The notes under the pieces: model-generated
Told to the model about the DNA's origin: nothing
Database searches by the model: none
Seen by the model: the letters and a program-made list of their open reading frames with translations, nothing else
Virus record (IMG/VR): IMGVR_UViG_3300033156_001279
Location: 13,069 to 77,068 of that record
DNA length: 64,000 bases
Direction: 5' to 3' (one strand)
Origin: a virus
Lineage: Duplodnaviria; Heunggongvirae; Uroviricota; Caudoviricetes
Part shown: positions 2,761-56,291 of the stretch, one piece after another
How positions within the stretch are numbered: position 1 is the first letter of the stretch
Layout: every line of letters starts with the position of its first letter
Position numbers and translations under genes: made by a program

Positions 2761-2778
2761 AATTTTGAACCTGGGTTC

Positions 2779-5157
2779 TTATCCACCAAGTTTAGTCCAT
2801 CTTTGCCTCTGACCAAGAACCTGACTAACTTGTCTGGCTATTTCCCTTATATCATTGTCATTTCTGACAGTATTGTACATGTTAATTGTGACATTTTCTC
2901 CGCCTCTAGTTTCCCCCGCTGGAATTATTCTTTCTCCTCCGTGAGCTATTATTGGAACTGCTTGACCTCTAATCCCTGGAACTATACCACCGAACTGAAA
3001 CGGCGAAAATCCAAGTTGCGACCATAAGAGACTTGAGACTATTTTTTGCCAAGTTCCTCCACCCTTCTTTACACCTCTTGAAGCTTCTTCTAATTCCCTT
3101 CTGCCCATTCCTTCCCAAGGGAGAGGCCCTAATTCAGGTATAGTTCTTATCCATCCCATTCCTCGAATTCTACTGATTCTTGCTATAGTTCTGTTGACTA
3201 AAGAAATCAAGTTATTCAATTTATCCCTGAACCAAGTAACAAATTTGGTTATAGGATCATATAATGCATCAGTAAGTGCTTCTCCTAATACTGTAGTTAA
3301 GCCCATTAGTGCAGCATGAAAAGTCTCAAGAATAAATTTTCCCAAATTCCAAACATTTTTTCCGATTTCACTGAATAACGCAGTCCAAAAAACTGGATCT
3401 AACAAATATTTGATAAAATTATCCCAACACCATTTACCGATTTTCTCGAAGGTAAGGCCCAACTCTCTCCAAAAAAACTCCCAAAATACAGGATCGGTTA
3501 AATCTTTTTGCCAACCTTTTAACCAATCTTTCCATTTCTCCCAAGCATTCTTCATTTTTTCAGTTTGAGCATCAACTGCTTCCCCCAAATTTTCTAAATT
3601 GTCCATTAAATTCTTAAAAATCCCTCCTTCTTCTTTTCCTTGTTTTTCTCTATCTGCTAAATACCTCTCCCAATCTTCATTTTCTCTTCTTAATCTCTTT
3701 TCCAAATCCTTAATTGTCATCTGATTTGCCCACAAACCTTTACTTCTTTCTCTTTCTAAATCTTCCATAATATCCTCAACTGCTCTTTCATGAGCCACTC
3801 TTCTATCTTCATCTATTCCCATTCCATCTTCTTGAGTTTCCGCCAGACCTTTAAATCCACTCTTGATATCAGCAATTCTTTTTTTGATATTATCCATGCT
3901 CTTTGCCATCTTGTCCCAGACTCCAGTATATTTCAAAACCAGATAAGTCCCAGCAGTTAAAACAGCACTAATTCCCAAAGCAGCCAAAGCTAATTTTGAA
4001 AAGGAAAAAGCAGCCACACCTACTATAGCACTCAGTCCTTTAAGAATATTAAAAAAAGAAATTAAGATACCTATTCCGAAAGAAATTTTGCCTATTAAGG
4101 TAGTAATAGCAATGCCCAGAATAGTAATTAATGCCACGGTGGTGTTTATTTTAGGCACTAAATCCAGAACTATTTCAGTTATTTTCCTGAGAGCATTAGC
4201 AACCACCCCCAGAACAGGAGCTAAAGCTTCTCCATAAACATTTTTCAAAAGTTGAATTGAAGTTCTCAATTTGTTCAAAGTAGCTCTTAAAGTTTCTTCT
4301 TCTATTTCATGATAGCCAACTGTATAAGCATATTTTTCCTCAATAGTTTTTAAAATTGCCAATGCTTTCTGCTTTTTTGAGAGTTGGTTTATTGTAAGTC
4401 CAAGCTCTTTTTTCAACCGCCTATCAGTCTCATTCCAGAGCATAAGAGCGGTAGTGTTGCCAGCAGCAATTGAAGTTCCCTTTAAAATTCTTTCTGACAG
4501 AGCCGTCAATGCCTTGGTCATATCGTCCATTTCACTTGTGGTCAGAAAAGCTACATCCAGAAATCTATAAATGAATTTTCTTGCTTCTGGAAAACCTAAA
4601 CCAGTAATATATAAATTCTTAACTGCATTTGCCGCATCTGTTAAAGGCATCAAGCCTTTCAAAGCCAGTTCCTGAGCAAGTTTCGTTGCTTCTTCAGTAT
4701 CTCTTCCATATGCCGCTGCTGCCACTTCAATTGATAAAAATGATTCCTGTAATTCAGCTGCAACATCAATACTTTCTTTTACTACTCTTCTCCATTGTCT
4801 ACTGATCTTACTAAAAATATTTCCTAAATATCTAAAATGCCAAGCAATAAAGGTTAATTGATAACCTATTCCCTTGGCGACTTTTTTCGTACCAGTTTCC
4901 AATCTGTTTATATGATTATATGCATCTTTGAAAGAAGTACTCCAATTTTGAGCAAACCTAGTAGCTACTTTAGCAGTTTTATCTTGAGCTTTGGAAAGAG
5001 AGTTAAAAGTCTTACTAGTCTTCATGAGAGACTTCGAAACTCCTTGACTGGATTTTTTGGTTTGTTTCCCAAGATTCGCAAGATTTTTAATCAGCTTTTC
5101 CTTTTCTTCTTTCCCCTTAACACTTAATTGAATTGTTACTTTAATTTCCTCTGGCAT
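2779..5157 (-). CDS. tail tape measure protein
   Basis: 792 aa, coiled-coil-rich, with a central block of hydrophobic transmembrane-like segments (ILGIAITTLIGKISFGIGILISFF...GVAAFSFSKLALAALGISAVLTAG). Follows the G/G-T chaperone pair, the canonical position. Confidence 0.6.
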   Translation of the reverse strand: MPEEIKVTIQLSVKGKEEKEKLIKNLANLGKQTKKSSQGVSKSLMKTSKTFNSLSKAQDKTAKVATRFAQNWSTSFKDAYNHINRLETGTKKVAKGIGYQLTFIAWHFRYLGNIFSKISRQWRRVVKESIDVAAELQESFLSIEVAAAAYGRDTEEATKLAQELALKGLMPLTDAANAVKNLYITGLGFPEARKFIYRFLDVAFLTTSEMDDMTKALTALSERILKGTSIAAGNTTALMLWNETDRRLKKELGLTINQLSKKQKALAILKTIEEKYAYTVGYHEIEEETLRATLNKLRTSIQLLKNVYGEALAPVLGVVANALRKITEIVLDLVPKINTTVALITILGIAITTLIGKISFGIGILISFFNILKGLSAIVGVAAFSFSKLALAALGISAVLTAGTYLVLKYTGVWDKMAKSMDNIKKRIADIKSGFKGLAETQEDGMGIDEDRRVAHERAVEDIMEDLERERSKGLWANQMTIKDLEKRLRRENEDWERYLADREKQGKEEGGIFKNLMDNLENLGEAVDAQTEKMKNAWEKWKDWLKGWQKDLTDPVFWEFFWRELGLTFEKIGKWCWDNFIKYLLDPVFWTALFSEIGKNVWNLGKFILETFHAALMGLTTVLGEALTDALYDPITKFVTWFRDKLNNLISLVNRTIARISRIRGMGWIRTIPELGPLPWEGMGRRELEEASRGVKKGGGTWQKIVSSLLWSQLGFSPFQFGGIVPGIRGQAVPIIAHGGERIIPAGETRGGENVTINMYNTVRNDNDIREIARQVSQVLGQRQRWTKLGG

Positions 5158-27121: not shown

Positions 27122-30100
27122 TTATTTGGGCTTTGGAAGTTCGCTTTTCTTTAAAACCCAAAACTTGCTGGCATCTTCCCTTTCTAAAATCCACAGACCT
27201 TTTAATTTTTTGCCTTTAAATTCAAATTTTTTAAAAGAATCAGAATCTTCATAAACGACTGCTTTCCCTTTATCTATTATCTTAATATATGAACTCGTTG
27301 CCTTAGTTGGGTTCGCTTCTTCTATTCCAGGTGGTAATTTTGCCAATTCCTTTTCTGACATTTTTGCTCTTTCATTTGCAGGCGGAAGATACTGAGAGAC
27401 TTCCATCCATTCTTTATATTTACAAGGTTTCCATATCGCTGTAATCTCTTTATTTTTTAAAGGATTTTGACTAAGAACAAAATGCATCAAGCCTTCCCTT
27501 TCAGGAAAATTGAATCTCAAATCCCAATGTTCTTTTGAGATTCCCGCTCTAATAACCCTTTGTCCGCGCCACCAATGCCACTGCAAAACAAAGGAAACTG
27601 TTTTTGCCTTTTCAATCTGTAAAAGTTCAACCATAATCAACTTCATATCGTTGGGTCTTTTTCTCAACCAAGTTATAATATCCTTCAGCCATTCTTTCTT
27701 AAGTGGATGAAGCTCTTTGAACTCTTGTAGTGCTTTCTCAACCCGTTTAACTTTTTCCGGGTAAGGAGTTCGAAGCCAAAAAGTTAAAATCTGTTGGGAC
27801 AAAACATATCGATAAGCAGCCCTTGCCCAACTTGCACCTGGGTTCAATTTTTTTTCAACAAGTTCTTTTCCAAGTTTTTCAACTAACTTATCTCTAACTT
27901 CTAACCTTTTCTTTTTATCTTCAAATTTCCAATACTGAAATTCTTTGGAAATTTTCTTTTTTATCTTTTCTGGTAGAGCAGAAATATTCTTTGGAGGAAT
28001 CCATTTTTTCTCAACAGCCACATCTGAAATAACATAAGGTGTTTCGTCTAATGGCTTAACAAGGAACCATGATGCTTCTTCTCTAAATTTTGTTTCTCTT
28101 GCTGGAGGTATAACTTCCTGCTTCTCTATCTTTCCTCGAAATTCAGCAGGTCTTAATTGCCTGAAAAACCACCTGCCCTTGAGTTTGCCACCAGAAAAGA
28201 AGTATTCATGGAAATAAGACTTTTGAGTTCCGCATTCGCAAAAACCCCTATCAATGATATGAAAAACTCCAGGGTATTCTTTCGTTGCCCCCACTTCTCC
28301 TTTTGGTGTTATACCTTCGACATTCAGCCACTCCACTGGCTCCCTTGATTTCCTCATCGCTGCTATTTCAGCATATTTTTCTTTGAATCCAGGCTTAATC
28401 CCAGGCCTTAATTTGGGAATACCTTTCTTCCAATCTATTTTCCAGATATCTTGGGCATCATATTTTTTCGCTTCAGCTATTGAAAGAACTGGCTCTTTGA
28501 TTTTTCCCTTGATTTGGTCAGCGATAGTCCAACCAATAAGAAATTCATTATACTTAAACCTCAAATCGGAATGGCAACTTTTACCCCTATAGTGATGCTG
28601 AACTACATACTTTTTCTTTCCTTCTGGCTTGGGATATTCCATATAAGGGTCAGCTAGTTTTTCAACCTTAAGCTTGGTCTTCATATATTTTTCTGCTCGC
28701 TTCCAGCATTCATACCAAGAGCCAGTCTTTTTCTTTGGTTTTATATCAATTCCAATACTATGCAAAACATCAACTATCTTAGCAAAATATCTCAAAATAT
28801 CTTCCATTGTCCAATCACCCCATTTTTTTCCTGCTTTTAATCTTGGAAAGCCAGCATTGCCCAAATATCTCAGATCTGCTATCAATTCTCTTTTTCTTTT
28901 CTTTGGATTTTTCAAATCTTCATCCATTCCTTCACTTCTAAATTGTTCCAAATGAAGTTTTTCTATTTCAGATAGATAAATAATCTTTCCTTCTTTCGTA
29001 ATCTCCTTCTCCTGTAAACAATAATTCTTCTTTGCTCGCTCAATCGTTTCTCTAACCGTATCTGCTTTCCTATCTACCTTACGCATTACTCTCGGAGCCC
29101 AAACCGAAATTCTCCAAGTATCATCTGTCAAATCATGTTCAGCATTCAGAGTTTCACCCTCAATCTCCAAGACATCTCCTTTATTAGCTTTTAAAGAGGT
29201 AGAGAAAGTTCTACCAGAACGGTGATAGAAAACATTGCCAAGTTTTTCTGTCTTCATTTTGTATTTTCCAGGTTCTAAACCGAAATAATAGTTATATACT
29301 TCTTTTACTTTGGTCTCTTTGATTTCAAGAACCTTGCCATAAACTGCTGTTGAATTATGAAATTTTACCATCCCACTCCGTATACCTTTGAGATTAAATT
29401 TGAAATCTCTTGTCTTACAAACATTGCCTTCTGAACCTGGTAGTCGTCTTAAAAATTCTGTATGTTTTCTTAGTTCCCTTCTGTTTTTTGAAAGAAGATA
29501 AGGGGCAAAATTCAATTTCATTTTTGTATCTGGAATTTTCCATGTTCTTTGCTTAAAAGGCAAAGACTCAAGTAACTTTAATCTTTTTTCAAAAGACTCA
29601 TTATGGATATCAATTTTAAAATAAGGCATATCATAAACATTAGCAACCACATGAGAATCATCAGGCATTCCTTTTTGATGCATATAACCAGCAATTACTT
29701 CTCTTGGTTTATGGTCATTGTCTTCCCACCATTCTAATTCGGCCATCAATACACAATCTTCTTTAGTTAATCTTTTCACTTCTTCAATCAAAGTAGGCAA
29801 TCTGTTAGTTATGATTTCACCATCTTCCGAAAAGATTTTTATTTCATTTCCTTTTTTATGCAACTCACAATTAAATCCATCATACTTCTTAGTTGAATAA
29901 AAAGGATATTTCCCTATTCCCTCCATTACTTCAGTAAATAAAACAATCGTTTGTCTTTTTTCTGGATAATACCCTCTTGTGGGTTTTAACGGCAAGAAAA
30001 ATCTGAACAATTTAATTTTATCTTCTCTTGCTGAAGTCTCAGCATCCTTGACCGCTGAAGCAACTCGGGGTTTTTCTCTTAGTTCTTTTTCAATTTCAGA

Positions 30101-31828
30101 AAGTTTCAGCATTCTATCTTTGCTTCTTAACATCACCAGATTATAAAGAGGAATAGCATTTGTGAAAGGAGTTGAAAATTTATCATAAACAAAATGCAAT
30201 CTTCTTCTAATCCACCAAGGAAGACTTCTAGCTATTCTAAATTCAATTATTCTTCTCATATCAAAACTCAACCATTCAGGTAAAAGAATATCCAAATCTC
30301 CTCTTGTTGCACCTCGGTTCACTATTCCTCCCGTAAGATAAACAAGCGGTCTTTGAATGGTAAAATTTTTAAAATAAGGCAATACCTCTTTCAAAACTAA
30401 GGTCTTTCCCATTCTCTTACCAGAAGTATAAATCGGCGCTGAATTCTCACTTAAATTGATAACCGTGTTATCTGTTGCTATGATGGCAGGAATTTTTGTT
30501 AACTCTTTAATTTTAGTTAACAAAACATCATCTCCATAACTCAGCGATTCTTTACCTAAATGAGTAATTATAATCTTTTTAACATTATCAACTGTATACC
30601 AATTCTTTAACTGATTGGCGATGCTACTATGACCATATGGTTCACCTGCTTTCCCTTTTCTTCTCGCCAAAGTTCTGGTAAGAGAAGAACCATCAATAAT
30701 TGCTAAATCCAATTTCTTAACATACTTTTCCTTATCTCCAGAATGCCAACCTAGGATATCTGTTGCTTGAAGAACTTTCTTATCACCCATTTGAATTATG
30801 AAAACATGCATTTTTGCCCGAATAGAATGAAGAACGGGAATTGGGGTTATTTTGAAGGGACCTAGATTAAAAGTCTTATAAGATTCATATTTTGCTCTGG
30901 TATCAATGTTGAAATCTTTATAAAGATTTGGAATTTCTTTTGCAGTTTCTTTGGAAACTATGACAGACATATCTTTCAAACCTAAAAGATGATCTGGGTG
31001 GGAGTGGCTAACCAAACAATAGTCTGGTTTAATTTCACTTAGGTTACCCTGATTTATCTCCCCGTAATCCACTAAAAGTCTTTTGCCTTTATACTCATAG
31101 AGAATCGCAGTATGGAACCTATGTCCAGGACCTTCTTCTTCAATTAAACCTTTTGTCCCGTAAAATGAAACTTTGTAACCTTCTTTGCTAAATCTTTCTT
31201 CAAATTTTTTTGATTCTTTATCTAAATTATCATCCATTACCTCATGTTTGAGTTTTCTTTTTAATATCTCATTCTTAATTAAAATGTGATAGTTGATACA
31301 TTCTTCTTTCGAAGCTGCTGATTGTTGCCATATTTTATGCAGTTTCTTATGCATATCCAAAAGTTCTTCATCGCTGAATTTAGCTGGATCACCAAAGTTC
31401 ATACTTTTGAAAGTTACACCTTCTAACCAAACCTGAGCACCTTTTGGTCTGATGATTTCTTTAGGAGGATCAAATTTCGAGATGAGTTCGATTGGGTAAT
31501 AGTACAAAGTCTTCTTCCCTTTCCACCACTTTCTGTATTCAGAATCTGAAATCTTATGAAATTTTCTCAGTTTCTTAAATTCTTTTAAATCAATCTTTCT
31601 GCCTTCTTTTAGTTCGATGATTCCTAAAGCTTTGTCTTCCTCAATCAAATACACTGGAATTCCAATATATTTCTTAAATAATCTTGAACTGACTATTGCT
31701 TTTTTCTTTCTTTGCCAAATCAAAGTACCATGGGGTTTCACCAAAATTTTTCCAGGCAACATAATTGTTCTTCCAGGCTGTATCAATTCAGGAATGTCTG
31801 ATGGAACTAACATTTTTGCAGAAATCAA
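27122..31828 (-). CDS. LigD-like multidomain DNA-end processing enzyme: MBL-fold + possible Pol-beta-type NTase + ATP-dependent ligase + two LigD 3'-phosphoesterase domains
   Basis: HSHPDH (HxHxDH) at aa 275-280. GG-x9-DLD at ~aa 500-513. Ligase motifs KYDG (648-651), DGE (669-671), EGNVCK (800-805), KVLEIKETK (~832-840). LigD PE signatures VVQHHY..HSDLRF..EGITPKGEVG..IIDRG..GGKLKGRWFF (aa ~1073-1225) and VLQWHW..HWDLRF..GKKLKGLWIL (~1413-1552). Confidence 0.6.
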   Translation of the reverse strand: MISAKMLVPSDIPELIQPGRTIMLPGKILVKPHGTLIWQRKKKAIVSSRLFKKYIGIPVYLIEEDKALGIIELKEGRKIDLKEFKKLRKFHKISDSEYRKWWKGKKTLYYYPIELISKFDPPKEIIRPKGAQVWLEGVTFKSMNFGDPAKFSDEELLDMHKKLHKIWQQSAASKEECINYHILIKNEILKRKLKHEVMDDNLDKESKKFEERFSKEGYKVSFYGTKGLIEEEGPGHRFHTAILYEYKGKRLLVDYGEINQGNLSEIKPDYCLVSHSHPDHLLGLKDMSVIVSKETAKEIPNLYKDFNIDTRAKYESYKTFNLGPFKITPIPVLHSIRAKMHVFIIQMGDKKVLQATDILGWHSGDKEKYVKKLDLAIIDGSSLTRTLARRKGKAGEPYGHSSIANQLKNWYTVDNVKKIIITHLGKESLSYGDDVLLTKIKELTKIPAIIATDNTVINLSENSAPIYTSGKRMGKTLVLKEVLPYFKNFTIQRPLVYLTGGIVNRGATRGDLDILLPEWLSFDMRRIIEFRIARSLPWWIRRRLHFVYDKFSTPFTNAIPLYNLVMLRSKDRMLKLSEIEKELREKPRVASAVKDAETSAREDKIKLFRFFLPLKPTRGYYPEKRQTIVLFTEVMEGIGKYPFYSTKKYDGFNCELHKKGNEIKIFSEDGEIITNRLPTLIEEVKRLTKEDCVLMAELEWWEDNDHKPREVIAGYMHQKGMPDDSHVVANVYDMPYFKIDIHNESFEKRLKLLESLPFKQRTWKIPDTKMKLNFAPYLLSKNRRELRKHTEFLRRLPGSEGNVCKTRDFKFNLKGIRSGMVKFHNSTAVYGKVLEIKETKVKEVYNYYFGLEPGKYKMKTEKLGNVFYHRSGRTFSTSLKANKGDVLEIEGETLNAEHDLTDDTWRISVWAPRVMRKVDRKADTVRETIERAKKNYCLQEKEITKEGKIIYLSEIEKLHLEQFRSEGMDEDLKNPKKRKRELIADLRYLGNAGFPRLKAGKKWGDWTMEDILRYFAKIVDVLHSIGIDIKPKKKTGSWYECWKRAEKYMKTKLKVEKLADPYMEYPKPEGKKKYVVQHHYRGKSCHSDLRFKYNEFLIGWTIADQIKGKIKEPVLSIAEAKKYDAQDIWKIDWKKGIPKLRPGIKPGFKEKYAEIAAMRKSREPVEWLNVEGITPKGEVGATKEYPGVFHIIDRGFCECGTQKSYFHEYFFSGGKLKGRWFFRQLRPAEFRGKIEKQEVIPPARETKFREEASWFLVKPLDETPYVISDVAVEKKWIPPKNISALPEKIKKKISKEFQYWKFEDKKKRLEVRDKLVEKLGKELVEKKLNPGASWARAAYRYVLSQQILTFWLRTPYPEKVKRVEKALQEFKELHPLKKEWLKDIITWLRKRPNDMKLIMVELLQIEKAKTVSFVLQWHWWRGQRVIRAGISKEHWDLRFNFPEREGLMHFVLSQNPLKNKEITAIWKPCKYKEWMEVSQYLPPANERAKMSEKELAKLPPGIEEANPTKATSSYIKIIDKGKAVVYEDSDSFKKFEFKGKKLKGLWILEREDASKFWVLKKSELPKPK

Positions 31829-38848: not shown

Positions 38849-38878
38849 TTGACAAGGGGTTATGAAAAATGCTACAAT
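38849..38878 (+). promoter_or_regulatory. sigma70-type promoter P3: TTGACA-agggg-N-TGC-TACAAT-gg
   Basis: -35 at 38849-38854, 18-nt spacer with extended -10 TGn, -10 TACAAT at 38873-38878. Confidence 0.45.
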
Positions 38879-39927: not shown

Positions 39928-40391
39928 GTGGAATATCTTTGCGGGAAGCCGGTAAGATGGTTTATGGTAAGTGATAAAAAAAGTGTTTAATTTTAGCCGG
40001 TTTGAAGCTCAAAAAATTAAAATTACTTTTTATCAAAACCCATTTACGATTTTATTTGGCTTTCTACAAAGGTATTCTGACTTGCCACCTTTATTCTACC
40101 ATATTTAATTCAAAAAGTCAAAAATATACTTCTTGAACCCAGGTTCAAAAACTATTTTAAAAAGTGAACTTATGTTTCAAAAAATGAAATTAACTATCAG
40201 AAGATATATTAAGAATAGAGAAATTAACTTTAATTGGAAAGGACAACTCTATATTTTAGCTTTCAGAGAGCTAAGGAAACAGGATAGAGGATTTTTCTTT
40301 AGCATTTACAAAATAGAGGGTTTAAAGTATAAAAGAGTTTTTAAGTTCTAAGTTCATTTTAGCAATAATAAAAATAAAGGTCAAGTAAATT

Positions 40392-46385: not shown

Positions 46386-46405
46386 TTTTGAACCTGGGTT
46401 CAAAA
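46386..46405. repeat. 20-bp perfect palindrome TTTTGAACC-TGG-GGTTCAAAA
   Basis: Seen directly. Other copies lie at 2766-2779 (one mismatch), 40133-40148, 50258-50271, 52395-52410 and 54746-54759. Confidence 0.8.
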
Positions 46406-46408: not shown

Positions 46409-46437
46409 TTGACACAAGTTTTTCAGTTTGATAAAAT
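46409..46437 (+). promoter_or_regulatory. sigma70-type promoter P7: TTGACA-N17-TAAAAT-gg, firing into a non-coding region
   Basis: -35 at 46409-46414, -10 at 46432-46437. Confidence 0.4.
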
Positions 46438-46443: not shown

Positions 46444-46570
46444 ATACCTGCTCGGTCTTAATATTTATACCCGCCCGAGACCGAGCAGGTTAAGGAGGTT
46501 TTATCATAAACATTAGGAAATGAACCCAACTATGCAAAACAAAATCCCAGCATTTGCTGAGGTTTTTTTG
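46444..46570 (+). ncRNA. candidate small RNA (~125 nt): P7 promoter, 12-bp-stem hairpin, then terminator-like hairpin with T7 tract
   Basis: CCTGCTCGGTCT(46447-46458)...AGACCGAGCAGG(46478-46489), then CAGCatttGCTG followed by TTTTTTT (46549-46570). The only reading frame inside is a 17-codon one whose SD is 21 nt from the ATG. Confidence 0.35.
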
Positions 46571-46652: not shown

Positions 46653-46683
46653 GGAGAATTAAAAACTCTCCTCTTTTCTTTTA
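46653..46683 (+). terminator. hairpin GGAGA-attaaaaac-TCTCC followed by a T-rich tract
   Basis: Seen directly. Sits at the convergence point of the rightward block and the leftward genes 46681-47974. Confidence 0.3.
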
Positions 46684-47106
46684 TAGTATCTCTTGTCTTT
46701 GTTCTAACATAATCTTCTTAGATATTTTTTCTAATGGAGTCGGAAAAATATTGTGAGCTCTCCGATAATCATCAATTTGCATAAGTTCTTTATCAGTGCA
46801 AAGCTCACAATCTTGTGGAATATAAGTTGTTAGAAAACCAATTTTAACCTTCTTTCCTTTTCCTACTCCTTCAGTTCCTAAATTACAATAAGTATTGTTT
46901 TGCGAATAAATTCTATCCCAATCTCGGTAGCTTACTAATTTCTTTACAAAAACTGGCTCTATTGATTTGGATTTTGGAACTGTTCTTTCTCTGAAATCTT
47001 TAATTCCTTGTTTTGCTTTGGGACTATTTTTCAGCATCTCCTGAAAACTTAAATACCCAAAACCTCCTTTTGATTCCGATGTTTTTGAAATCTGTTCAAA
47101 TGTCAT
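46681..47106 (-). CDS. hypothetical protein (141 aa)
   Basis: ORF co-oriented with the Rep-like gene and downstream of it. Confidence 0.35.
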   Translation of the reverse strand: MTFEQISKTSESKGGFGYLSFQEMLKNSPKAKQGIKDFRERTVPKSKSIEPVFVKKLVSYRDWDRIYSQNNTYCNLGTEGVGKGKKVKIGFLTTYIPQDCELCTDKELMQIDDYRRAHNIFPTPLEKISKKIMLEQRQEIL

Positions 47107-47119
47107 AATTTTATTAAAT

Positions 47120-47974
47120 TTAATAATTATTTCGACCTTTATTATTAAATGGCTCTAATTCATCAAGATTCTCATCAATAAATTTATGAATTGTTTCTAA
47201 TTTCCACGGAAAGTTTACATTGTCGCACAACCAATCCATCACAGCTACTATTTCCTCATCTGGATAACCAATAAGAGCTTTTGCTGGTCTTAACTCTCTT
47301 TTAAGAGCGGCTTGATATTGTTGCTGATTAGCAAACTGAAAATTTTTATATTCCCAATAAAGAGCAATAATTTGGATATGTCTCTTTTTATCTTTTTTCA
47401 TTTCTTCTAATTTAGATTTAAAAGAAAATTCTTTGAGTTGTGACTTAGTCGCAACATTCCTTTCTTTTGTGTTTCCTTTCTTTTGTGTTTCCTTACTATT
47501 AGAAGTAAAACTGTTTAACCCGTGATGTAAAACTCTTATACTCGTGAGTTTTAACTCTTTTACATCACCTTTGTAAGTGTTGTAAAACTCTTTTACTTCA
47601 CTTTCGCTCATATTTTTGAATTTCTTTTTAAGTTCTTTCAGTTCGCTAAAATCAGTTCTCCAATGTTTTTTACCCAAAAGCCAATATCTATTCGTGCATT
47701 GTTTTCCTATTCTCTTTTGTTTTATGAGTCCGAAATATCTTAAAACTTTAATCCCTTCATTGACTGTTGCTCTACTTAATGCTAATTCTTCAGCAATCTT
47801 TTTTTGAGCAGGAAATGCCTTTTGATTTTTATCAGCATATCTACATAAACTAATATAAATCATTGAGAAAGTAGTTCCCAAAATTCGAGCGTACCCATTA
47901 AGAAACTTATCATCAGTCCAATACCAACCCTTAGGTCTCATATCTCTCACTTCAAATTGTTCTTTTTCCTCCAT
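47120..47974 (-). CDS. HTH replication-initiator / replisome-organizer-like protein
   Basis: The N-terminal ...ISLCRYADKNQKAFPAQKKIAEELALSRATVNEGIKVLRYFGLI resembles the winged-HTH of plasmid/phage Rep (DnaD/RepA_N-like) proteins. Adjacent to inverted repeats at 48041-48115. Confidence 0.45.
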   Translation of the reverse strand: MEEKEQFEVRDMRPKGWYWTDDKFLNGYARILGTTFSMIYISLCRYADKNQKAFPAQKKIAEELALSRATVNEGIKVLRYFGLIKQKRIGKQCTNRYWLLGKKHWRTDFSELKELKKKFKNMSESEVKEFYNTYKGDVKELKLTSIRVLHHGLNSFTSNSKETQKKGNTKERNVATKSQLKEFSFKSKLEEMKKDKKRHIQIIALYWEYKNFQFANQQQYQAALKRELRPAKALIGYPDEEIVAVMDWLCDNVNFPWKLETIHKFIDENLDELEPFNNKGRNNY

Positions 47975-48308: not shown

Positions 48309-48347
48309 TGTCAAGAGTTGACAAGGGTGTTCTAAAAATGATATAAT
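48309..48347 (+). promoter_or_regulatory. sigma70-type promoter P4 (TTGACA-aggg-N-TATAAT-gg) with overlapping palindrome TGTCAA-gag-TTGACA
   Basis: -35 at 48318-48323, 18-nt spacer, -10 TATAAT at 48342-48347, ATG at 48354. The palindrome 48309-48323 covers the -35 and is a candidate operator. Confidence 0.45.
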
Positions 48348-48353: not shown

Positions 48354-49175
48354 ATGGGCAGGAGGCAAAAATTATTTAAACCAATTACAGATGAAAGTTC
48401 TGCCTCTCAATATATGGGTATTAAAGAATTTAAAAATAAAATAATATGTGGAGATTGCTTAAAGATTTTACCAAAGATTCCTGATAATTCTGTTGATTTG
48501 ATAATAACTGATCCGCCTTATAATATAAGCCAAAAAGGTAAAAGTATATCAAGAAAATCAATGAGAGCAACTTCAATGAAGAGAAATATGGATATCAAAT
48601 TGGATTTTGGAGATTGGGATCATATGTCAGAAAAAAATTTTAAGAAATTTACAGAAGAATGGTTTAAAGAGTGTGCAAGAATTCTAAAACCGAAGAGTTG
48701 GATCTATGTATTTTTTAGTAAGGAGAGAATTGGATATTTAGCGATGAATTTAGATTTGAAATATGGTTTGAAGACAAGAACTATATTTACTTGGGTAAAG
48801 AAAAACCCAGCACCTCAATTTAAAAAAGTCAATTGGATTTCCGCAACAGAATTTATTTGGGTAGGAAGTAAAGGAGCAAGTAAATTGAAAAACTATGGTT
48901 ATGTTAAAGATATGTATAATTGGTATATGACTTGTAATAAATCCATTTATGGTAAAACAGAGCATCCAACAGAAAAACCAGTTGAATTGGTAGAACATTT
49001 CATAAGATATAACTCCAATGAAAATGATATAGTTCTTGATCCTTTTCTTGGTTCGGGCACTACAGCAGTTGCATGCAAAAGATTAAGAAGAAATTATTTA
49101 GGAATCGAAAAAAATAAGAAGTATTGTAGAATAGCGAAACAAAGAATTGATGCTCAAACTCTGCCTCTCTTTTAA
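48354..49175 (+). CDS. beta-class DNA methyltransferase (DPPY; N6-adenine or N4-cytosine)
   Basis: Motif IV LIITDPPYN precedes motif I FLGSGTTAVAC, which is the beta-class order. Confidence 0.7.
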   Translation: MGRRQKLFKPITDESSASQYMGIKEFKNKIICGDCLKILPKIPDNSVDLIITDPPYNISQKGKSISRKSMRATSMKRNMDIKLDFGDWDHMSEKNFKKFTEEWFKECARILKPKSWIYVFFSKERIGYLAMNLDLKYGLKTRTIFTWVKKNPAPQFKKVNWISATEFIWVGSKGASKLKNYGYVKDMYNWYMTCNKSIYGKTEHPTEKPVELVEHFIRYNSNENDIVLDPFLGSGTTAVACKRLRRNYLGIEKNKKYCRIAKQRIDAQTLPLF

Positions 49176-49179
49176 AAGA

Positions 49180-50250
49180 ATGGAATTTGTAAAAAAAATA
49201 CCACAAAATAATACAGAAAAAAATATAAGGCGGTTTATAAACTCCAATATTCAAGGAGATACACTGGAAGTATTAAAAACATTTCCAGAAGAATGCATTG
49301 ATTCAATTATTACATCACCACCATATTATTTACTAAGAGACTACCAAATTGAAAAACAAATTGGGTTGGAGAGAACTTATCAAGAATATCTTGCTAAACT
49401 TTGGGTAATTTTTGATGAAATAAAAAGAGTATTGAAGAAAGATGGAACCTGTTTTGTAAATTTGGGTGATACTTTTTCTGGCGGTGGATTTGGATATGGA
49501 AATATTACAGATGAAGAATTCAAAAAAAAATCCCCAAAACAAGGAAGCAATGTTGGGACTTTGTCGGGTAAAAGCAGATTAAAGATAAATAAATTAAGAA
49601 AATTGAAACAATGTCCAGCTAAATCTTTAATGCTCATTCCTCACAGATTCGCAATAGGAATGCTAGATAGAAATTGGCATTTAAGGAATACTTTGATCTG
49701 GATAAAGAAAAATGCAATGCCTGAAAGCGTGCGAGACAGATGGAAAAAAGCTCATGAGTATATTTTTTTCTTTACTAAATCGCCTAAATATCATTTTGAT
49801 TTAGATGCTATAAGAAGACCACACAAAGAAGTTTCAATCAAGCGAGCTAAATATGAGCAAGGTAGAAACGCATTAGGATTAAATCCGAGTAGCATGGGAA
49901 AAAAATATAAAGGCAATAAAAGATATTTTGGAATGCCTGCCAGAATGGTTAAATTAAATCCCAAAGGGGCAGTTCCGCCAGATTATCTCTTGGTTAATAC
50001 CAACTGTTCAGAAAAAGATACTTCGGAACACTATGCCAGCTTTCCACAGGATTTAATTATTCCCTTAATCCAAGCTGGCTGTCCTAAAAGAGGAATCATA
50101 TTAGATCCATTTATAGGAAGTGGAACAACAGGAATAGTCGCTCTCAAATTAGATAGAAATTTTATAGGGATTGATATAAAAGAAGAATATGTAAAAATGG
50201 CTAATAAAAGAATTGAACCATATCTAAGACAAACAAAATTATTTAAGTAA
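49180..50250 (+). CDS. beta-class DNA methyltransferase (SPPY; probably N4-cytosine)
   Basis: IITSPPYY, then C-terminal FIGSGTTGIVAL. The start is placed at the ATG at 49180 (MEFVKK); the ORF track shows a longer overlapping extension. Confidence 0.7.
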   Translation: MEFVKKIPQNNTEKNIRRFINSNIQGDTLEVLKTFPEECIDSIITSPPYYLLRDYQIEKQIGLERTYQEYLAKLWVIFDEIKRVLKKDGTCFVNLGDTFSGGGFGYGNITDEEFKKKSPKQGSNVGTLSGKSRLKINKLRKLKQCPAKSLMLIPHRFAIGMLDRNWHLRNTLIWIKKNAMPESVRDRWKKAHEYIFFFTKSPKYHFDLDAIRRPHKEVSIKRAKYEQGRNALGLNPSSMGKKYKGNKRYFGMPARMVKLNPKGAVPPDYLLVNTNCSEKDTSEHYASFPQDLIIPLIQAGCPKRGIILDPFIGSGTTGIVALKLDRNFIGIDIKEEYVKMANKRIEPYLRQTKLFK

Positions 50251-50256
50251 TTATCT

Positions 50257-50916
50257 ATGAACCCAGGTTCAAATGCGAATAAGAAAAAGATAATCCTTGA
50301 CTTATGTGGGGGAACAGGAGCTTGGAGCAGACCCTACAAAGAAGCAGGATATGATGTGAGGAATATAACCTTACCTGATTATGATGTTAGAACTTATAAG
50401 CCACCTAAAAACGTTTATGGGATATTGGCTGCTCCGCCCTGTGTGCAATTCAGTTTTGCTAAAACTACTGGTAAACCTAGAAACTTGAGAAAAGGAATGG
50501 AAATAGTTATTGCTTGTTTAAAAATAATTTGGGAATGTCAATATGATTTAAAGAGTCCTTATGCAAAAGAAACTACACTAAAGTTTTGGGCATTAGAAAA
50601 CCCTAGTGGATTACTCAAAAGATTTCTTGGAAAGCCAGTCTTTGAATTCTGCCCTTATGATTTTGGTGATGAATATCAAAAACATACTTCTTTGTGGGGT
50701 TATTTCAATATTCCGAAAAAAAAACCAACAAAATTGTCTAAAAGATTAAAAGAATTATCTAAAACTCATAGTCAACCTTTAGCAAAATATATGAAATTTG
50801 ACAGATTAAAAACGAGAGAGATACATCCAGAATATTATGGAAAATTAACACGAGCAGAAAGAAGGGCTATAACTCCATCTGGTTTTGCTGAGGCATTTTT
50901 TCAGGCTAATAAATAA
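50257..50916 (+). CDS. minimal C5-cytosine methyltransferase-like protein (motifs I, IV, VI only)
   Basis: ILDLCGGTGAWS (motif I-like), AAPPCVQFSFAKTTG (PC motif IV), FWALENPSG (ENV-like motif VI). 219 aa with no recognisable target-recognition domain. The ATG is immediately followed by the TGAACCCAGGTTCA palindrome. Confidence 0.45.
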   Translation: MNPGSNANKKKIILDLCGGTGAWSRPYKEAGYDVRNITLPDYDVRTYKPPKNVYGILAAPPCVQFSFAKTTGKPRNLRKGMEIVIACLKIIWECQYDLKSPYAKETTLKFWALENPSGLLKRFLGKPVFEFCPYDFGDEYQKHTSLWGYFNIPKKKPTKLSKRLKELSKTHSQPLAKYMKFDRLKTREIHPEYYGKLTRAERRAITPSGFAEAFFQANK

Positions 50917-52395
50917 TCACCAACCTTTCGGAATCTTTTTTCCTTCTTCAAACATAGAACCTCCGCCGACGCTAACTTCCCTGTCTTTTCCTTCCGAAGC
51001 ACCCATTTTATTAAAACCCTGTAGAGCCAAAGCTACTGACCAAAAATCATCCGAATGCTGAGTCCCAGTTTCCATACTCACTAAATCATTAGTAACAGAA
51101 CATATGGAAGTCAGCATTTCTTCATCATTAAGAAGTTCCAATTGTCGGTTCAAAACTACCTTTCCGAAATCAGTAGCCATCTGAACTCTTTTCTTGGAAG
51201 TAAAAACCACAGGGACAAATTGAGGAGACAAGAGTCCTAAATCACTGGCTCCTTCCAATTCTCCTCTGGTACTGTCATAAAAGACATAATCAATTCCAAA
51301 AACCCTTATAGCTTCTTTGACATATTCCAACTGAGTTGGTTTGAGAGGGTCATATGTTTCGCCAGAATAATAGCCCCAATTTCTCACACTCTTTCTGTGA
51401 ATGTGTATGGCTTTTCCTTTCCTGATTTCAAAAACATTCAAGACGCTTGGATGTTTTTTCTTTCCCAAATCCCAACCAGCTACAACCAAGTTGTCTGTTT
51501 TAAAACCTTCGATTATCGGGATATTTCTCAAACTCTCATTGACTATCTCCTTTCTCAACTTTTCTTTCTTAAAATAACTATCAGTTGAATAATACGGATT
51601 ACATTGCACTTCTGCTGAAAAAGCCTTTTCCCCCATAACTGGGATTTTCGCTTTTAATTGTTCCAAGGTATAAAACTCGGGCCAAGTCGGAACTTCATTT
51701 CCTTCTTTATCTCTGGTAATTCCTGGGTAAAAACGAACATGAAATTCTTTTTGGATTTCAGGATCAAAATAAATATCAGCACGGGAGATGGTGGACCCAG
51801 CGACATGAATTTCACCTCCAGGTTTGAGTGCTTCCAAAATAACACTCCTAAATATATCTGAGATTTTTAGAGTTAGAGTTGGATGAATCGGATTAGAAGG
51901 GTCTGAAAATAAATCATCGCATAAAATTATGTTATCCTTTGCTCCCCTTGTAAATGAGATTATTCCAGAAGGTCTGATCCTTATCACGTGTTTTCCATCC
52001 CAAGTATAAGCAGCAACATTCTCCGCTAAAGGTTTCAAATTTTTAAGTTCTTCGAAATAAGGATTTTTATCTATCAAACTTTTAATTTGCTGAATATGCC
52101 AACCAGCTAATCTATCATTAAATGAATAATATCTGATGCTCAAATCTTGCTTAAAGCCTTGGAACATTATTTTAAAGAGAACATAAGAGTAGAAACTTGT
52201 ACTTTTAAAATGGCTTCTGGCAGCGACCCTCATTGTTCTATCATATTTCTGAAGATAATCACAACATTCTTTGATATAGGACCCGCCAGTGAAATTGGTA
52301 AAACTTTCAGCAAATATTTTTGTTGTAAAAAAATAAAAGCTCTTTTGAGCTTCACTCAATATCTTAACTTTGGTTTTTAAATCTATATTTTTCAT
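50917..52395 (-). CDS. terL: terminase large subunit
   Basis: N-terminal ATPase region (RVAARSHFKSTS Walker A-like, ILCDDLF Walker B-like). C-terminal RNaseH-like nuclease (VAGWDLGKK..., ...METGTQHSDDFWSVALAL). The start is taken at the ATG at 52393-52395. The ORF track extends to a TTG at 52410, which lies inside the palindrome. Confidence 0.6.
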   Translation of the reverse strand: MKNIDLKTKVKILSEAQKSFYFFTTKIFAESFTNFTGGSYIKECCDYLQKYDRTMRVAARSHFKSTSFYSYVLFKIMFQGFKQDLSIRYYSFNDRLAGWHIQQIKSLIDKNPYFEELKNLKPLAENVAAYTWDGKHVIRIRPSGIISFTRGAKDNIILCDDLFSDPSNPIHPTLTLKISDIFRSVILEALKPGGEIHVAGSTISRADIYFDPEIQKEFHVRFYPGITRDKEGNEVPTWPEFYTLEQLKAKIPVMGEKAFSAEVQCNPYYSTDSYFKKEKLRKEIVNESLRNIPIIEGFKTDNLVVAGWDLGKKKHPSVLNVFEIRKGKAIHIHRKSVRNWGYYSGETYDPLKPTQLEYVKEAIRVFGIDYVFYDSTRGELEGASDLGLLSPQFVPVVFTSKKRVQMATDFGKVVLNRQLELLNDEEMLTSICSVTNDLVSMETGTQHSDDFWSVALALQGFNKMGASEGKDREVSVGGGSMFEEGKKIPKGW

Positions 52396-52410
52396 TGAAC
52401 CTGGGTTCAA

Positions 52411-52533
52411 TTATCTCCTGTTTCGTCCTTTACCAGTTCTTCGAGTGGGGCTACATCCGCCACGCCCTCGATTTGCTCTTATCCCTCTTCCACTTCCGTC
52501 TCTACGAGGTATTCCTCTTTTTGTTTTAGTCAT
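52411..52533 (-). CDS. candidate 40-aa Arg/Gly-rich micro-ORF in a locally GC-rich spacer between terS and terL
   Basis: Minus-strand ATG at 52531-52533. Translates MTKTKRGIPRRDGSGRGIRANRGRGGCSPTRRTGKGRNRR, stop at 52411-52413. Its GC content is visibly above the surroundings. Confidence 0.25.
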   Translation of the reverse strand: MTKTKRGIPRRDGSGRGIRANRGRGGCSPTRRTGKGRNRR

Positions 52534-52542
52534 ATTTTTAAT

Positions 52543-53004
52543 CTAACTTTGCTTATTTAAGACCTCCAAAATCTTTTTAACAGATTCTCCACCTTCTAAT
52601 GTGACCGAATATTTTTCCTGATATATCGATTTCAATTTATTCAGTTCAATCTCATCATTTCTAATCTCGGAATTTAACTCTTTTATATTTCTAACAGAAG
52701 GCTCATTTTTTTTATATTCCTTTTCCAATTGTTCAGTTAATTTCTTAATCCTTTCACTAATAGAAAAGATAGCCCCTTTCAAAATAATCTTATTGGGCAA
52801 AGAAATAAATTCTTTGTTGACAAAAGTAATTGCTTTCTTGATGGTCTTTTTAGAAAAGCCATAATCTTTTTCCAATTGCCAAATGGGCTTCTTCCTGAAG
52901 AAATGGTCAGACCAAATTTTGATATATCTTTCTTGGATTTCCTCATCCTCTTTTGCTGAAGGTCTTCCTGGATGAGTCCTATTTTTTTCGTTAGCTATTG
53001 ACAT
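52543..53004 (-). CDS. terS: terminase small subunit (putative, HTH)
   Basis: 153 aa immediately upstream of terL. HTH-like KKPIWQLEKDYGFSKKTIKKAITFV. C-terminal coiled coil. Confidence 0.4.
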   Translation of the reverse strand: MSIANEKNRTHPGRPSAKEDEEIQERYIKIWSDHFFRKKPIWQLEKDYGFSKKTIKKAITFVNKEFISLPNKIILKGAIFSISERIKKLTEQLEKEYKKNEPSVRNIKELNSEIRNDEIELNKLKSIYQEKYSVTLEGGESVKKILEVLNKQS

Positions 53005-53027
53005 AACTTTAGATAAAATGCTATAAT
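52998..53027 (+). promoter_or_regulatory. sigma70-type promoter P5: TTGACA-N18(TGC)-TATAAT-gg
   Basis: -35 at 52998-53003, overlapping the terS start codon on the other strand. -10 at 53022-53027. Confidence 0.45.
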
Positions 53028-53046: not shown

Positions 53047-53322
53047 ATGAATATGGAAAACTTTAAAACTAAGGATTTCCCATTATCGGCCTTTCTTATT
53101 GCTAAAGGTTTTAGATTGCTTGATATTGAGAATCATTCCAAAAGAAAAACCTTTGTTTTTGAATCCAATCCTGAGATTAACAGATTAGCTCAGGCTTTTT
53201 ATTTTGATAAGAATAATTCCAAAAATCTGCAAGTGGATGCCAGAGAATTTATTAGAGCTGAAAGAGAACTGAAAACCAAGCTGTATTCCACTTACTTTGA
53301 TATTAAGACTAAAAGAGACTAA
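53047..53322 (+). CDS. hypothetical protein (91 aa)
   Basis: ORF 20 nt after P5. Confidence 0.4.
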   Translation: MNMENFKTKDFPLSAFLIAKGFRLLDIENHSKRKTFVFESNPEINRLAQAFYFDKNNSKNLQVDAREFIRAERELKTKLYSTYFDIKTKRD

Positions 53323-54455: not shown

Positions 54456-54748
54456 AAACGCTAAATGACATTTTAAAAGAGTATTATAGAAGATTTACTC
54501 ACGATTGGCCTCCCGAATGGTATACAAAGGAAGAGGCTAAAAATCATCCGATAGAAGCGGGAAAATTTCTTACCAAAGAAATAACCGAATTACTAGAAGA
54601 ATTAGTTGGAAAAGAACGAAAACTTCCTAAAAATGCAAAAATGCTTTTTAGCAATGAAGAATTGAAAAAAGAAAAATTAAGAAATTATGGTTCTAATTTA
54701 AGACGTCAATACCTTAAAACCCAAATTAAAGAAATATTAAAGAAATGA
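54452..54748 (+). CDS. hypothetical protein (98 aa)
   Basis: ATG at 54452 coupled to the upstream stop. The TGA stop is part of the 54746-54759 palindrome. Confidence 0.35.
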   Translation: MKTLNDILKEYYRRFTHDWPPEWYTKEEAKNHPIEAGKFLTKEITELLEELVGKERKLPKNAKMLFSNEELKKEKLRNYGSNLRRQYLKTQIKEILKK

Positions 54749-54841
54749 ACCCAGGTTCAAATTATGTTTTATAAAAATTTATCTAAAAAAGGTTTAAATA
54801 AATTAGGTTCTCATTATAAATAACTGAATCCGATATAAAAT

Positions 54842-55231
54842 ATGTTTAATAAAGAAAAATCATTTGTTAAATATCTAGAGAAACTCATACTTAAATACTC
54901 TCCATTATTAGGAGTGGATTCTTATTGGATTTTGGTTGATTCGAGAGCAAGCATTGCTGATGATCCCCGGACTGGTTTTCAAATAGAAATATTATATCCG
55001 TATAAACGAGCATTTTTGCATTGGACAGAAAAGGCACTGAATAAATACCAAAAAAAGAATTTCAAGCAACTTGAACAAGCAGTAATTCATGAACTTTGTC
55101 ATATTCCAGTTGCAGGATTGAAAGAAATAACTAAAGAACGTTATATCAGCGAGAGAGAAGTCAGTGAAAAAACTGAACATTTAATTGATCATTTTGCTAA
55201 TGTATTCTTTAAGTTAATAAATAAAGGTTGA
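54842..55231 (+). CDS. HExxH metallopeptidase-like (SprT/Wss1-like) small protein
   Basis: AVIHELCHIPVAG contains HELCH, an HExxH motif. 129 aa. Confidence 0.3.
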   Translation: MFNKEKSFVKYLEKLILKYSPLLGVDSYWILVDSRASIADDPRTGFQIEILYPYKRAFLHWTEKALNKYQKKNFKQLEQAVIHELCHIPVAGLKEITKERYISEREVSEKTEHLIDHFANVFFKLINKG

Positions 55232-56258: not shown

Positions 56259-56291
56259 ATTTATCAAAAACTAAATTAAAAGGAAATCAGT

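Follow-up and report, generated by a model that had tools for sequence, protein, structure and literature searches.

Introduction

Short dispersed palindromes have been noted in several cultured phages. Those of the Cluster O mycobacteriophages, the best documented, have gone unexplained for a decade, whereas the IR sites of phage N15 and the stoperators of phage L5 have been explained. Here we describe a palindrome of the form TGAACC-YR-GGTTCA-AA, with two arms of six bases and a two-base centre, which is dispersed through a 64-kb stretch (the whole of the DNA that was analysed, hereafter the window) of a 77,068-bp metagenomic siphovirus contig. The palindrome is real, selected, boundary-associated and conserved. 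It belongs to the dispersed, palindromic phage repeats that resemble protein sites, and brings to them a new sequence and a new, uncultured lineage.

The nearest described counterparts are the 17-bp repeats 5'-TGTTCGG-NNN-CCGAACA of Cluster O (Cresawn et al. 2015, PMC4351075), for which a dimeric regulator was proposed but no function found. As in the window, these are dispersed palindromes of a siphovirus (about 70 kb) with invariant arms and a variable spacer. They lie in short intergenic gaps, at the 5' ends of genes and also inside genes, mostly at positions common to relatives and with single-base losses, and some insertions and deletions are flanked by them. Likewise, one site lies by methylase genes and most sites are away from promoters; the Cluster O repeats are absent from the host genome. 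The element described here shows the same invariant arms, variable spacer and excess over chance, and it occupies homologous positions with occasional losses (in relatives L148, L277 and L150). Sequence and geometry differ, however (7-3-7 in Cluster O, 6-2-6 here), as do the number of copies (more than 30 per genome against 6-8 in 64 kb) and the orientation bias, which is slight in Cluster O and clear here. Two features are absent from the Cluster O description (PMC4351075): an in-gene copy that is demonstrably under selection, and arms that recur unchanged in unrelated phages, whose hosts are of very different GC content.

A second point of comparison is the centromere of N15, whose repeats IR1-IR4 have the form GTGCGACC-NN-GGTCGCAC, with centres AC, TC, AT and AC, and are bound by SopB (PMC7205306). 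There, too, arms ending in ACC are followed by a free 2-bp centre and GGT, the copies are few and single, and the reader is a dimeric helix-turn-helix (HTH) protein. The IR sites are reportedly scattered through the N15 genome. Unlike the sites in the window they are not tied to stop or start codons, and in N15 the genes for SopA and SopB lie beside the plasmid functions, whereas neither partition genes nor a plasmid life style are evident here.

The stoperators of the Cluster A mycobacteriophages (L5 gp71) are numerous repressor sites in short intergenic spaces, and they block elongation rather than initiation of transcription (PMC9283540). Their orientation correlates with the direction of transcription and they occupy short intergenic spaces within operons, as do the sites described here, apart from two exceptions in relatives. 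Stoperators are, however, asymmetric 13-mers that are read by a monomer in temperate phages with an identified repressor, as opposed to a 6-2-6 palindrome in a window in which no repressor or sign of lysogeny was found. Short conserved regulatory sequences at gene boundaries can also be points of recombination at which accessory genes are shuffled; examples are the promoter-early stem-loop (PeSL) cassettes of phages of the T4 type and, in modular phage evolution, the idea of 'linkers'. PeSLs are units of a promoter and a terminator-like stem-loop, tens of bases long, and differ in this from a bare palindrome of 14-16 bp without promoter features.

Results

Copies of the palindrome in the window

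The window was scanned for TGAACCNNGGTTCA with at most one mismatch and compared with shuffled sequence. Eight matches were found where 0.14 were expected, and the largest number in any shuffle was two. Five sites contain perfect 14-mers (at 40134, 46389, 50258, 52396 and 54746), and a sixth, at 2766, has a single mismatch at base 1. A reading of the letters without database searches (hereafter the sequence-only reading) had already located these six copies correctly, and the count confirms that they are not random; it had missed the other two, near-copies of the form TGAACC-NN-GGTGCA at 27833 and 30308 within gene 27122-31828. The core GAAC-N4-GTTC is restricted to the six sites within the 64 kb (0.68 expected). 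When the motif is extended to the oriented 16-mer TGAACCCAGGTTCAAA, the matches at 40134(+), 46387(-), 50258(+) and 54746(+) are perfect, those at 2764(-) and 52394(-) have one mismatch, and the centre reads CA along the local direction of transcription at all six. Every one of the six is intergenic or lies on a gene boundary, as had been claimed, which holds for 17% of positions (P ~2.5e-5).

The sites are tightly fitted between their neighbours (Table 1). The first base of site 1 is the last A of the TAA stop codon of the tape-measure gene, and the site ends 5 nt before the Dit ATG; at site 5, the stop codon of the flanking open reading frame (ORF) and the terL ATG are one and zero spare bases away, respectively. 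The copy at 54746 does supply a stop codon from its TGA, in agreement with the sequence-only reading. Site 3, for which that reading gave correct coordinates and an apt description, is palindromic apart from its central TG. It occupies the gap in which the early operon and the rep operon converge. The -35 element of P46409, the only early-class (strong) promoter that abuts a site, follows 6 nt downstream.

Three copies had been thought to create artefactual N-termini with the sequence MNPGS. For the TTG at 52410 this view can be kept: judged by the terL homologues, which begin at the position of MKNIDL, that start is an artefact. The ATG at 50257, which overlaps site 4, is in contrast probably the real start of the C5-methyltransferase (MTase)-like gene, since no other ATG, GTG or TTG precedes catalytic motif I, and the observation that this gene starts at a copy of the palindrome stands. 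Among the 120 best-scoring homologues listed, 1-25 residues precede motif I and the sequence is never MNPGS. A conserved MNPGS N-terminus can be dismissed, as it is absent from these 120 proteins and from the 42 terL homologues inspected.

Table 1. Palindrome sites and neighbouring features, in coordinates of the window
Feature	Position	Strand	Sequence and context
Site 1	2764..2779	-	AGAACCCAGGTTCAAA, one mismatch; occupies the gap between the tape-measure stop codon and the Dit ATG (2760)
Site 2	40134..40149	+	Perfect 16-mer; in a 465-bp gap within a rightward early operon
Site 3	46386..46405	unoriented	20-bp palindrome TTTTGAACCTGGGTTCAAAA; oriented 16-mer on the minus strand, 46387-46402
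Site 4	50258..50273	+	Perfect 16-mer; overlaps ATG 50257 and codons 1-5 (MNPGS) of the C5-MTase-like gene 50257-50916
Site 5	52394..52409	-	TGAACCCAGGTTCAAT; between the stop codon of the 40-aa basic ORF (52411-52533) and the terL ATG (52395)
Site 6	54746..54761	+	Perfect 16-mer; TGA is the stop codon of ORF 54452-54748; heads a ~2-kb segment without counterpart in the 76.8-kb relative
Variant near-site	27833..27846	-	TGAACCCAGGTGCA; in gene 27122-31828, codes for LNPGAS; status uncertain
Variant near-site	30308..30321	-	TGAACCGAGGTGCA; in gene 27122-31828, codes for VNRGAT; status uncertain
P46409, early-class sigma-70 promoter	46409..46437	+	TTGACA-17-TAAAAT; TGn and ATGGA features common to early promoters
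Putative small RNA, ~125 nt	46444..46570	+	Downstream of P46409, its putative promoter; 14-bp 5' hairpin, AAGGAGG stretch, terminator
40-aa Arg/Gly-rich ORF	52411-52533	-	MTKTKRGIPRRDGSGRGIRANRGRGGCSPTRRTGKGRNRR; inserted between terS and terL
Dit	1972-2760		Leftward late genes
Tape-measure gene	2779-5157		Leftward late genes; tail tube gene in the same set
Sugar-nucleotide/glycosyltransferase cluster	12576-23081	-	~10 kb within the late operon
gpT-like capsid gene	23177-24121		Leftward late genes
1568-aa protein	27122-31828	-	Between portal and capsid genes; metallo-beta-lactamase nuclease fold, ATP-dependent DNA ligase domain, LigD phosphoesterase-like region
Mu-like portal	31943-33415		Leftward late genes
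Rep-like operon	46681-47974
Three methyltransferase genes	48354-50916
terS and terL	50917-53004	-	Split from the other late genes by rightward early genes, the Rep-like operon and methyltransferases

Positional conservation in relatives

Relatives were reached by the motif scan and through homologues of Dit and terL, which yielded parts of about ten related phage genomes (Dit or terL 47-67% identical); gene calls in these loci are crude. Three of the loci (L054, L099 and L114) were obtained from scans of metagenomes and genomes with the 16-mer, the other listed matches being mostly chance singletons. The sequence-only reading had named positional conservation as a test, and it was found at four kinds of place. 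At the junction of tape-measure gene and Dit, six of the first seven genomes compared (the window and six relatives) have a site; it is absent from L148, and also from L277. The sequence is AGAACCCAGGTTCA in the window, TGAACCCAGGTTCA in L054 and L099, TGAACCAAGGTTCA in L144 and TGAACCTAGGTTCA in L149, and in a relative of 76.8 kb a degenerate copy, CGAACCCGAGTTCA, is left. The coding DNA flanking this site (270-300 nt per side) is 57-79% identical, with no step in divergence across it. The late operon ends with a site, 4-22 nt past the last small gene and directly before a bidirectional terminator, in each of the four relatives whose sequence extends over this region.

Between terS and terL, L154 and L275 have TGAACC-NN-GGTGCA 4 nt before the terL ATG, and L151 has the GGTGCA variant 4 nt after terS; this is the same variant as in the two near-sites of the window. 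The gap holds a decayed copy, TAAACCAGGATTCA, in the 76.8-kb relative (locus L150) and no site in L152. Upstream of terL, a site is present or visibly decayed in four lineages. The fourth place is inside a conserved structural gene of 318 aa, where L144, L148, L149 and L099 carry GGAACC-NN-GGTTCAAAAAATA about 240 nt into the gene; the homologue in the window is without it. This copy is written with ACC, which makes up 3-21% of the Thr codons; two of these relatives use CAG in it as well (10-17% of the Gln codons). The element therefore needs no stop or start codon. The retention of syntenic positions amid such diverged DNA, together with an in-gene copy held by rare codons, indicates that the sites are under purifying selection.

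Consensus and signature of the element

An alignment of 20 intergenic sites, taken from nine related contigs, gives the counts T18 G20 A20 A20 C20 C20, C13/T6/A1 and A16/G4 for the centre, and G19 G20 T20 T19 C20 A20 A16 A17. The twelve arm positions are identical in 18-20 of the 20 sites, while the centre is CA, TA, TG or AA in this set and AT or AG at further sites, nearly always a pyrimidine-purine step. Arm variants (T1 to A, C or G; T12 to G; C6 to T or G; C13 to T) are in every case single changes for which the partner position never compensates. Folded as RNA, the element forms at best a stem of 5 bp (-3.7 kcal/mol). The constancy of the arms, the freedom of the centre, the lack of compensatory changes and the weak hairpin favour a site in double-stranded DNA over an RNA structure; such a site would be recognised by a dimer whose subunits each contact one half and leave the bendable centre untouched. 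That some protein binds the motif as DNA, a narrower claim than the model discussed below, we regard as probable.

The element is not fully symmetric in use. At most sites CA rather than TG faces the direction of transcription, and the asymmetric variants are all co-oriented with transcription, by roughly 8 to 0, a count in which the events are not all independent. Its distance to start codons ranges from -15 to more than 80 nt.

The sequence-only reading had placed a CCWGG, the Dcm/EcoRII-type core, at the centre. CCWGG is off-centre and does not belong to the conserved element, and the reading is refuted by the variability of the two central bases, with CCTAGG, CCAAGG and CCATGG in relatives and CCCCGG and CCCGGG in unrelated phages. 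CCWGG is also not avoided in the window (47 found, 34 expected).

The same arms in unrelated phages

IMG/VR was scanned for TGAACCNNGGTTCAAA, with 114 matches listed. Among them are unrelated viral contigs of 47-61% G+C that use Shine-Dalgarno sites and carry the motif in several copies: four of TGAACCCCGGTTCA in L365, four in an 87.8-kb contig (L295 and L305), four of TGAACCCGGGTTCA in L366, three in L375, and two each in L380, L358 and L370. By our estimate, the chance of a second copy within 10 kb is near 6e-4. Apart from methyltransferase matches in L370, these contigs share no detectable protein with the window (tblastn, 1e-4). Two contigs mix centres; otherwise a contig mostly keeps to one, orientation aside (CC/GG, CG or TA). 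Placement obeys the rules seen in the window: either the TGA of the motif serves as the upstream stop codon, with a Shine-Dalgarno sequence and ATG after it, or a terminator and the following promoter adjoin the motif.

L365 encodes a protein that shares 38% identity, along roughly half of its length, with one from Aeromonas phage HJ05; its matches in further phages of Aeromonas, Vibrio and Rhizobium (79-110 kb) are weaker. The TGAACC palindrome is absent from the part of HJ05 that was scanned (OQ594355.1, 1-50000). These first 50 kb contain instead 11 copies of a sister motif, TTGCAAC-(T/C)G-GTTGCAA, 0.7-7 kb apart. Judged by eye against the annotated coding sequences, about half of them are intergenic; three directly follow hairpins, two of which are clear intrinsic terminators, and the centre is always YG on the coding strand. 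None of the papers searched contains the exact motif strings, that of HJ05 included, and the HJ05 repeat seems to be undescribed. As HJ05 is culturable, it offers an experimental entry point.

One motif spans hosts that differ in G+C content and in Shine-Dalgarno use, while HJ05, distantly related to one of the contig groups with this motif, has another, which makes it more likely that the reader is carried by the phages rather than by their hosts. A host repetitive extragenic palindrome, which the sequence-only reading had considered, finds no support in a scan of 185,579 species genomes: among the 120 matches listed, 116 are singletons, and the remaining four loci (49-69% G+C, two or three sites) include none that is phage-related or of low GC. 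Elements of the REP/BIME kind number hundreds per chromosome and come with a RAYT transposase; neither RAYT nor TnpA was found, and the conserved syntenic positions argue against recent mobility.

Discussion

A tentative model: punctuation of transcription by a phage-encoded dimer

The sites follow a clear grammar, in which a stop codon, the site and a start codon succeed one another or the site stands beside a terminator, and their arms are identical across phages without detectable protein homology whose hosts range from 33% to about 60% GC. This combination points to a phage-borne reader. An operator for a dimeric DNA-binding protein was one of the candidates of the sequence-only reading, and it is the one favoured by comparison (invariant arms, free centre, absence of compensation and the in-gene copy in rare codons). 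Our best reading, which we advance tentatively, is that the palindrome is a dispersed DNA site of a dimeric, phage-encoded protein that punctuates transcription and incidentally marks junctions between core and accessory genes.

In such a model, a homodimeric, sequence-specific and most likely phage-encoded protein would read TGAACC-YR-GGTTCA with its A-rich 3' flank. A handful of sites would be kept in the smallest spaces available, between cistrons, at operon ends and occasionally inside a gene. Once bound, the protein would act as a roadblock or insulator or would aid termination, setting upstream cistrons apart from downstream ones and closing off operons where they converge; it would block elongation in the manner of the Cluster A stoperators. 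Expression could in this way be graded across the junctions from tape-measure gene to Dit, from terS to terL and from the second to the third methyltransferase gene, and at site 3 the protein might also control the adjacent P46409. As a by-product, islands of identical sequence in otherwise diverged genomes would mark, and may promote, the junctions at which accessory genes are gained and lost. We infer that a protein binds the sites, that the phage encodes it and that it acts on transcription, the last because the sites cluster at cistron junctions, are best conserved at operon ends by terminators and in one case touch an early promoter. At operon ends the sites abut intrinsic terminators. 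If punctuation or the seeding of cassettes is indeed the function, it would partly explain how phage operons are partitioned and why mosaic breaks fall at gene boundaries.

Several observations weigh against this model. No binder was found when about 100 ORFs of the window were compared with Pfam and 20 of them also with PHROGs, the sole DNA-binding matches being the HTH_36 domain of Rep, a Ros/MucR-like protein and a weak Mor-like match in the putative terS. Only one of the six sites adjoins an early-class promoter, and classical operator function therefore cannot explain the other five. The strand bias of the centre and of the arm variants is unexpected for a symmetric dimer, and it is reversed at two sites in relatives. 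Individual sites are dispensable, having been lost in L148 and L277 and having decayed in the 76.8-kb relative. The roadblock is proposed from position and by analogy, and the Cluster O authors judged a transcriptional role of their repeats to be unlikely (PMC4351075).

TerS and the Rep-like protein, which the sequence-only reading had named as candidate binders, are conjectural in that role, as is its idea of a homing-endonuclease target. Two proteins of the window were looked at as possible readers. For the DUF5659 protein (53047-53322), a single-sequence AlphaFold model has a predicted local distance difference test score (pLDDT) of 52, no PDB match or literature was found, and the protein is absent at the equivalent place in L154. 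The second (53913-54455, + strand) is an early protein conserved at 58-70% identity across five relatives; it is 180-187 aa long, has a zinc ribbon at its C-terminus and gave no match in Pfam or the PDB, searches with a profile included. In its homologues L154:598-1161 and L275:1336-1899 the stop codon abuts a copy of the motif. The case for this protein as a candidate reader is circumstantial.

A wider version of the model can be imagined, in which a horizontally mobile DNA-binding protein reads short palindromes set exactly at cistron ends (TGAACC-NN-GGTTCA and cousins such as TTGCAAC-YG-GTTGCAA) and so forms a portable system of genome punctuation in tailed phages, insulating or terminating transcription and at the same time serving unrelated phages of widely differing hosts as a standard linker for clean cassette exchange between genes. 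We consider this a long shot.

Recombination at the palindrome

The alternative that survives best, though we think it unlikely, is that the palindrome is the target of a site-specific recombinase or of a homing or HNH-type endonuclease, or a microhomology shared for use by phage recombinases, at which cassettes are gained, lost and swapped exactly. The early regions are indeed hypervariable: when six segments were compared, 74% of the genes lacked a counterpart in any of the five others. Some half of the intergenic sites in these regions directly follow the 3' end of a conserved gene and have lineage-specific genes after them. Compared with the 76.8-kb genome, site 6 stands at the head of about 2 kb of inserted DNA with a second gpT-like capsid gene and the remnant of an HNH gene; in the 76.8-kb relative a site is followed directly by an intact-length but frameshifted HNH gene, of which the window retains the remnant, 1.5 kb away from site 6. 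The C5-MTase-like gene, which is widely mobile, owes its ATG to the motif, although none of its 120 best-scoring listed homologues starts with MNPGS, the relatives are rich in TnpB and LAGLIDADG genes and in inteins, and the same motif occurs in unrelated phages. In Cluster O, recombination between the repeats explains insertions and deletions (PMC4351075).

The best-conserved sites, however, have syntenic flanks that have diverged to a similar degree on both sides, the in-gene copy is held by rare codons, and the insertion at site 6 has no second site at its right end. The proximity to accessory genes is in part a matter of base rate, because most early genes are lineage-specific anyway. In favour of recombination, the core AACC-NN-GGTT may resemble the invertase crossover sites hix and gix. 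For a serine invertase one would look for partner sites with the same centre and for an invertase gene. The centre is CA at all six sites of the window, but relatives mix centres even within one genome (AA and TA in L144, TA and CA in L149), which would block strand exchange by a serine recombinase, and neither a recombinase gene nor a Resolvase domain was found among about 100 ORFs.

The proposal of the sequence-only reading that the palindrome marks module boundaries stands in part. It agrees with the half of the sites that lie 3' of core genes and with the insertion at site 6, but not with the best-conserved sites, which lie between syntenic, equally diverged genes. The three units that consecutive copies had been said to delimit are not transcription units, and they are not exchanged as blocks in relatives. 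By analogy with the Cluster O repeats that flank insertions and deletions, a role at boundaries would fit as a secondary effect of the punctuation proposed above.

An RNA element

More doubtful again is an RNA element, a small hairpin (5-bp stem, CNNG loop) bound by a translational repressor or a processing nuclease, which would control the downstream cistron or protect the upstream 3' end. Sites 0-8 nt from, or overlapping, the start codons of terL, Dit and the MTase would suit this, since the host uses no Shine-Dalgarno sequence and initiation should be sensitive to local structure; sites also closely follow stop codons, and both the centre and the variants are oriented with transcription. 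The hairpin is weak, however, and with an invariant 'stem' and a variable 'loop' its features are the reverse of those of RNA operators, whose stems covary and whose loops stay fixed. The recurrent change of U12 to G destroys a base pair, and its partner never changes to restore it. Furthermore, the sites at operon ends, and one past a terminator, precede no gene, the in-gene copy lies some 240 nt into its gene, and two sites of relatives have the opposite orientation. Rfam gave no match at the gathering threshold in the 64 kb.

Partition, nicking and host control

Sites that organise the genome as the centromere of N15 does, bound by a ParB/SopB-type or clamp-like protein for partition or DNA compaction, appear very unlikely to us. 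The architecture is close to that of IR1-4, four natural sites that stand apart from one another and have invariant arms with ACC at the end and a free centre of 2 bp. Spacing in late regions is also roughly regular, at 6-8 kb, and one methyltransferase (14932-15879) is fused to a ParB_N domain. Apart from this fusion, no cognate genes were found: the 64-kb window and about 38 kb of the closest relative contain no ParA/SopA and no ParB with an HTH, and the Pfam lists of the relatives contain none either. No integrase, repressor or other temperate or plasmid sign was seen in the window, and partition leaves the coupling of the sites to stop and start codons unexplained.

Nicked phage genomes are known, such as those of T5 and some Pseudomonas phages, and the sites could in principle be places at which a phage nickase interrupts one strand of the virion DNA. 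The strand-specific asymmetry of the sites and the 1568-aa nuclease/ligase protein encoded among the head genes would be in keeping with this. The idea is nevertheless highly improbable, as the orientation follows the direction of the genes and not one strand of the genome, and, to our knowledge, the nick consensus sequences described are not palindromes.

We give the slimmest chance to a host LexA (SOS) box through which phage genes would come under host SOS control. The Cheo box, to which LexA of the Gram-positive type binds, has GAAC-N4-GTTC as its core, and this sequence survives even in the degenerate copy of the 76.8-kb relative. Only one of the six sites, however, lies by an early-class promoter, and the conserved C and G that flank the centre and the outer T and A fall outside the Cheo consensus. 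The motif also occurs in phages of high-GC hosts that use Shine-Dalgarno sequences; if these are Proteobacteria, as the distant kin among Aeromonas and Vibrio phages suggest, their LexA box is a different one. LexA motifs differ widely between phyla (PMC8565304).

The remaining candidates can be dismissed briefly. An intrinsic terminator would not have so weak a hairpin followed by A instead of T; the element is missing from the terminator scan, and true terminators stand separately alongside it. It does not substitute for a Shine-Dalgarno sequence, as the phage is almost without such sequences anywhere and the spacing to start codons is variable. A promoter for the host or phage RNA polymerase is ruled out at most sites because ATG abuts or precedes the motif, and a position beside the -35 element is no general rule (three cases against roughly two expected by our estimate). 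A resemblance to a tRNA T-arm (GGTTCAAA) is accompanied by neither tRNA genes nor a matching 3' stem, and an IS605/TnpB end hairpin is rejected in view of the two TnpB elements found in relatives, whose flanks have nothing in common with the motif.

Genome context

The window has a G+C content of 33.5%, and its Dit and terL are 100% identical to JGI proteins on the 77,068-bp contig. A megablast of positions 40-56 kb against GenBank phages returned no cultured relative, the identity of terL to that of Bacteroides phages reaches no more than 27%, and a search of species genomes with the Dit alignment gave no match. Late genes run leftward from about 35.5 kb. Both variant near-sites fall within the gene of the 1568-aa nuclease/ligase protein, and the small-ORF place between terS and terL, taken in the window by the 40-aa Arg/Gly-rich ORF, is empty or holds a different small ORF in relatives.

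Four strong early promoters of a phage-specific class, TTGACA-N15-TGnTAnAATGGA, were recognised (38849-38878, 46409-46437, 48318-48347 and 52998-53027), possibly with another at about 59675-59690. The gene at 48354 is probably leaderless, its start lying 6 nt past the -10 element; a Shine-Dalgarno sequence is almost absent from the approximately 99 ORFs of the window. Neither tRNA genes (in the window) nor an RNA polymerase gene (among its ORFs and in domain scans) were found. The putative small RNA downstream of P46409 has a minimum free energy of -39.9 kcal/mol (z = -4.6), matches no Rfam family and contains a half-site, UGAACCCA, at 46521; it is antisense-proximal to the 3' end of the rep operon. 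Site 6 is followed by a segment of the early operon (54842-56621, + strand) with the second Mu gpT-like capsid paralogue (55326-56258) and the HNH endonuclease remnant (56292-56621).

The cluster of sugar-nucleotide and glycosyltransferase genes encodes two GT2 glycosyltransferases, a UDP-glucose dehydrogenase-like protein, a GDP-mannose dehydratase/epimerase, an RGP-like protein and a PfkB kinase, as well as a cytidylyltransferase-methyltransferase and the methyltransferase-ParB_N fusion, and suggests modification of virion or host glycans. The relatives L150, L151, L152, L153, L154 and L275 carry TnpB (IS605 OrfB), LAGLIDADG genes and terL inteins, and also an RtcB RNA ligase, RecA, a class-I aminoacyl-tRNA synthetase-like protein (Pfam tRNA-synt_1b) and an S-adenosylmethionine synthetase. 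Some of the more distant homologues of Dit and terL are found in metagenome-assembled genomes labelled Hodarchaeales, Woesearchaeota or Nanoarchaeia, labels that probably reflect mis-binning, because the promoters are bacterial.

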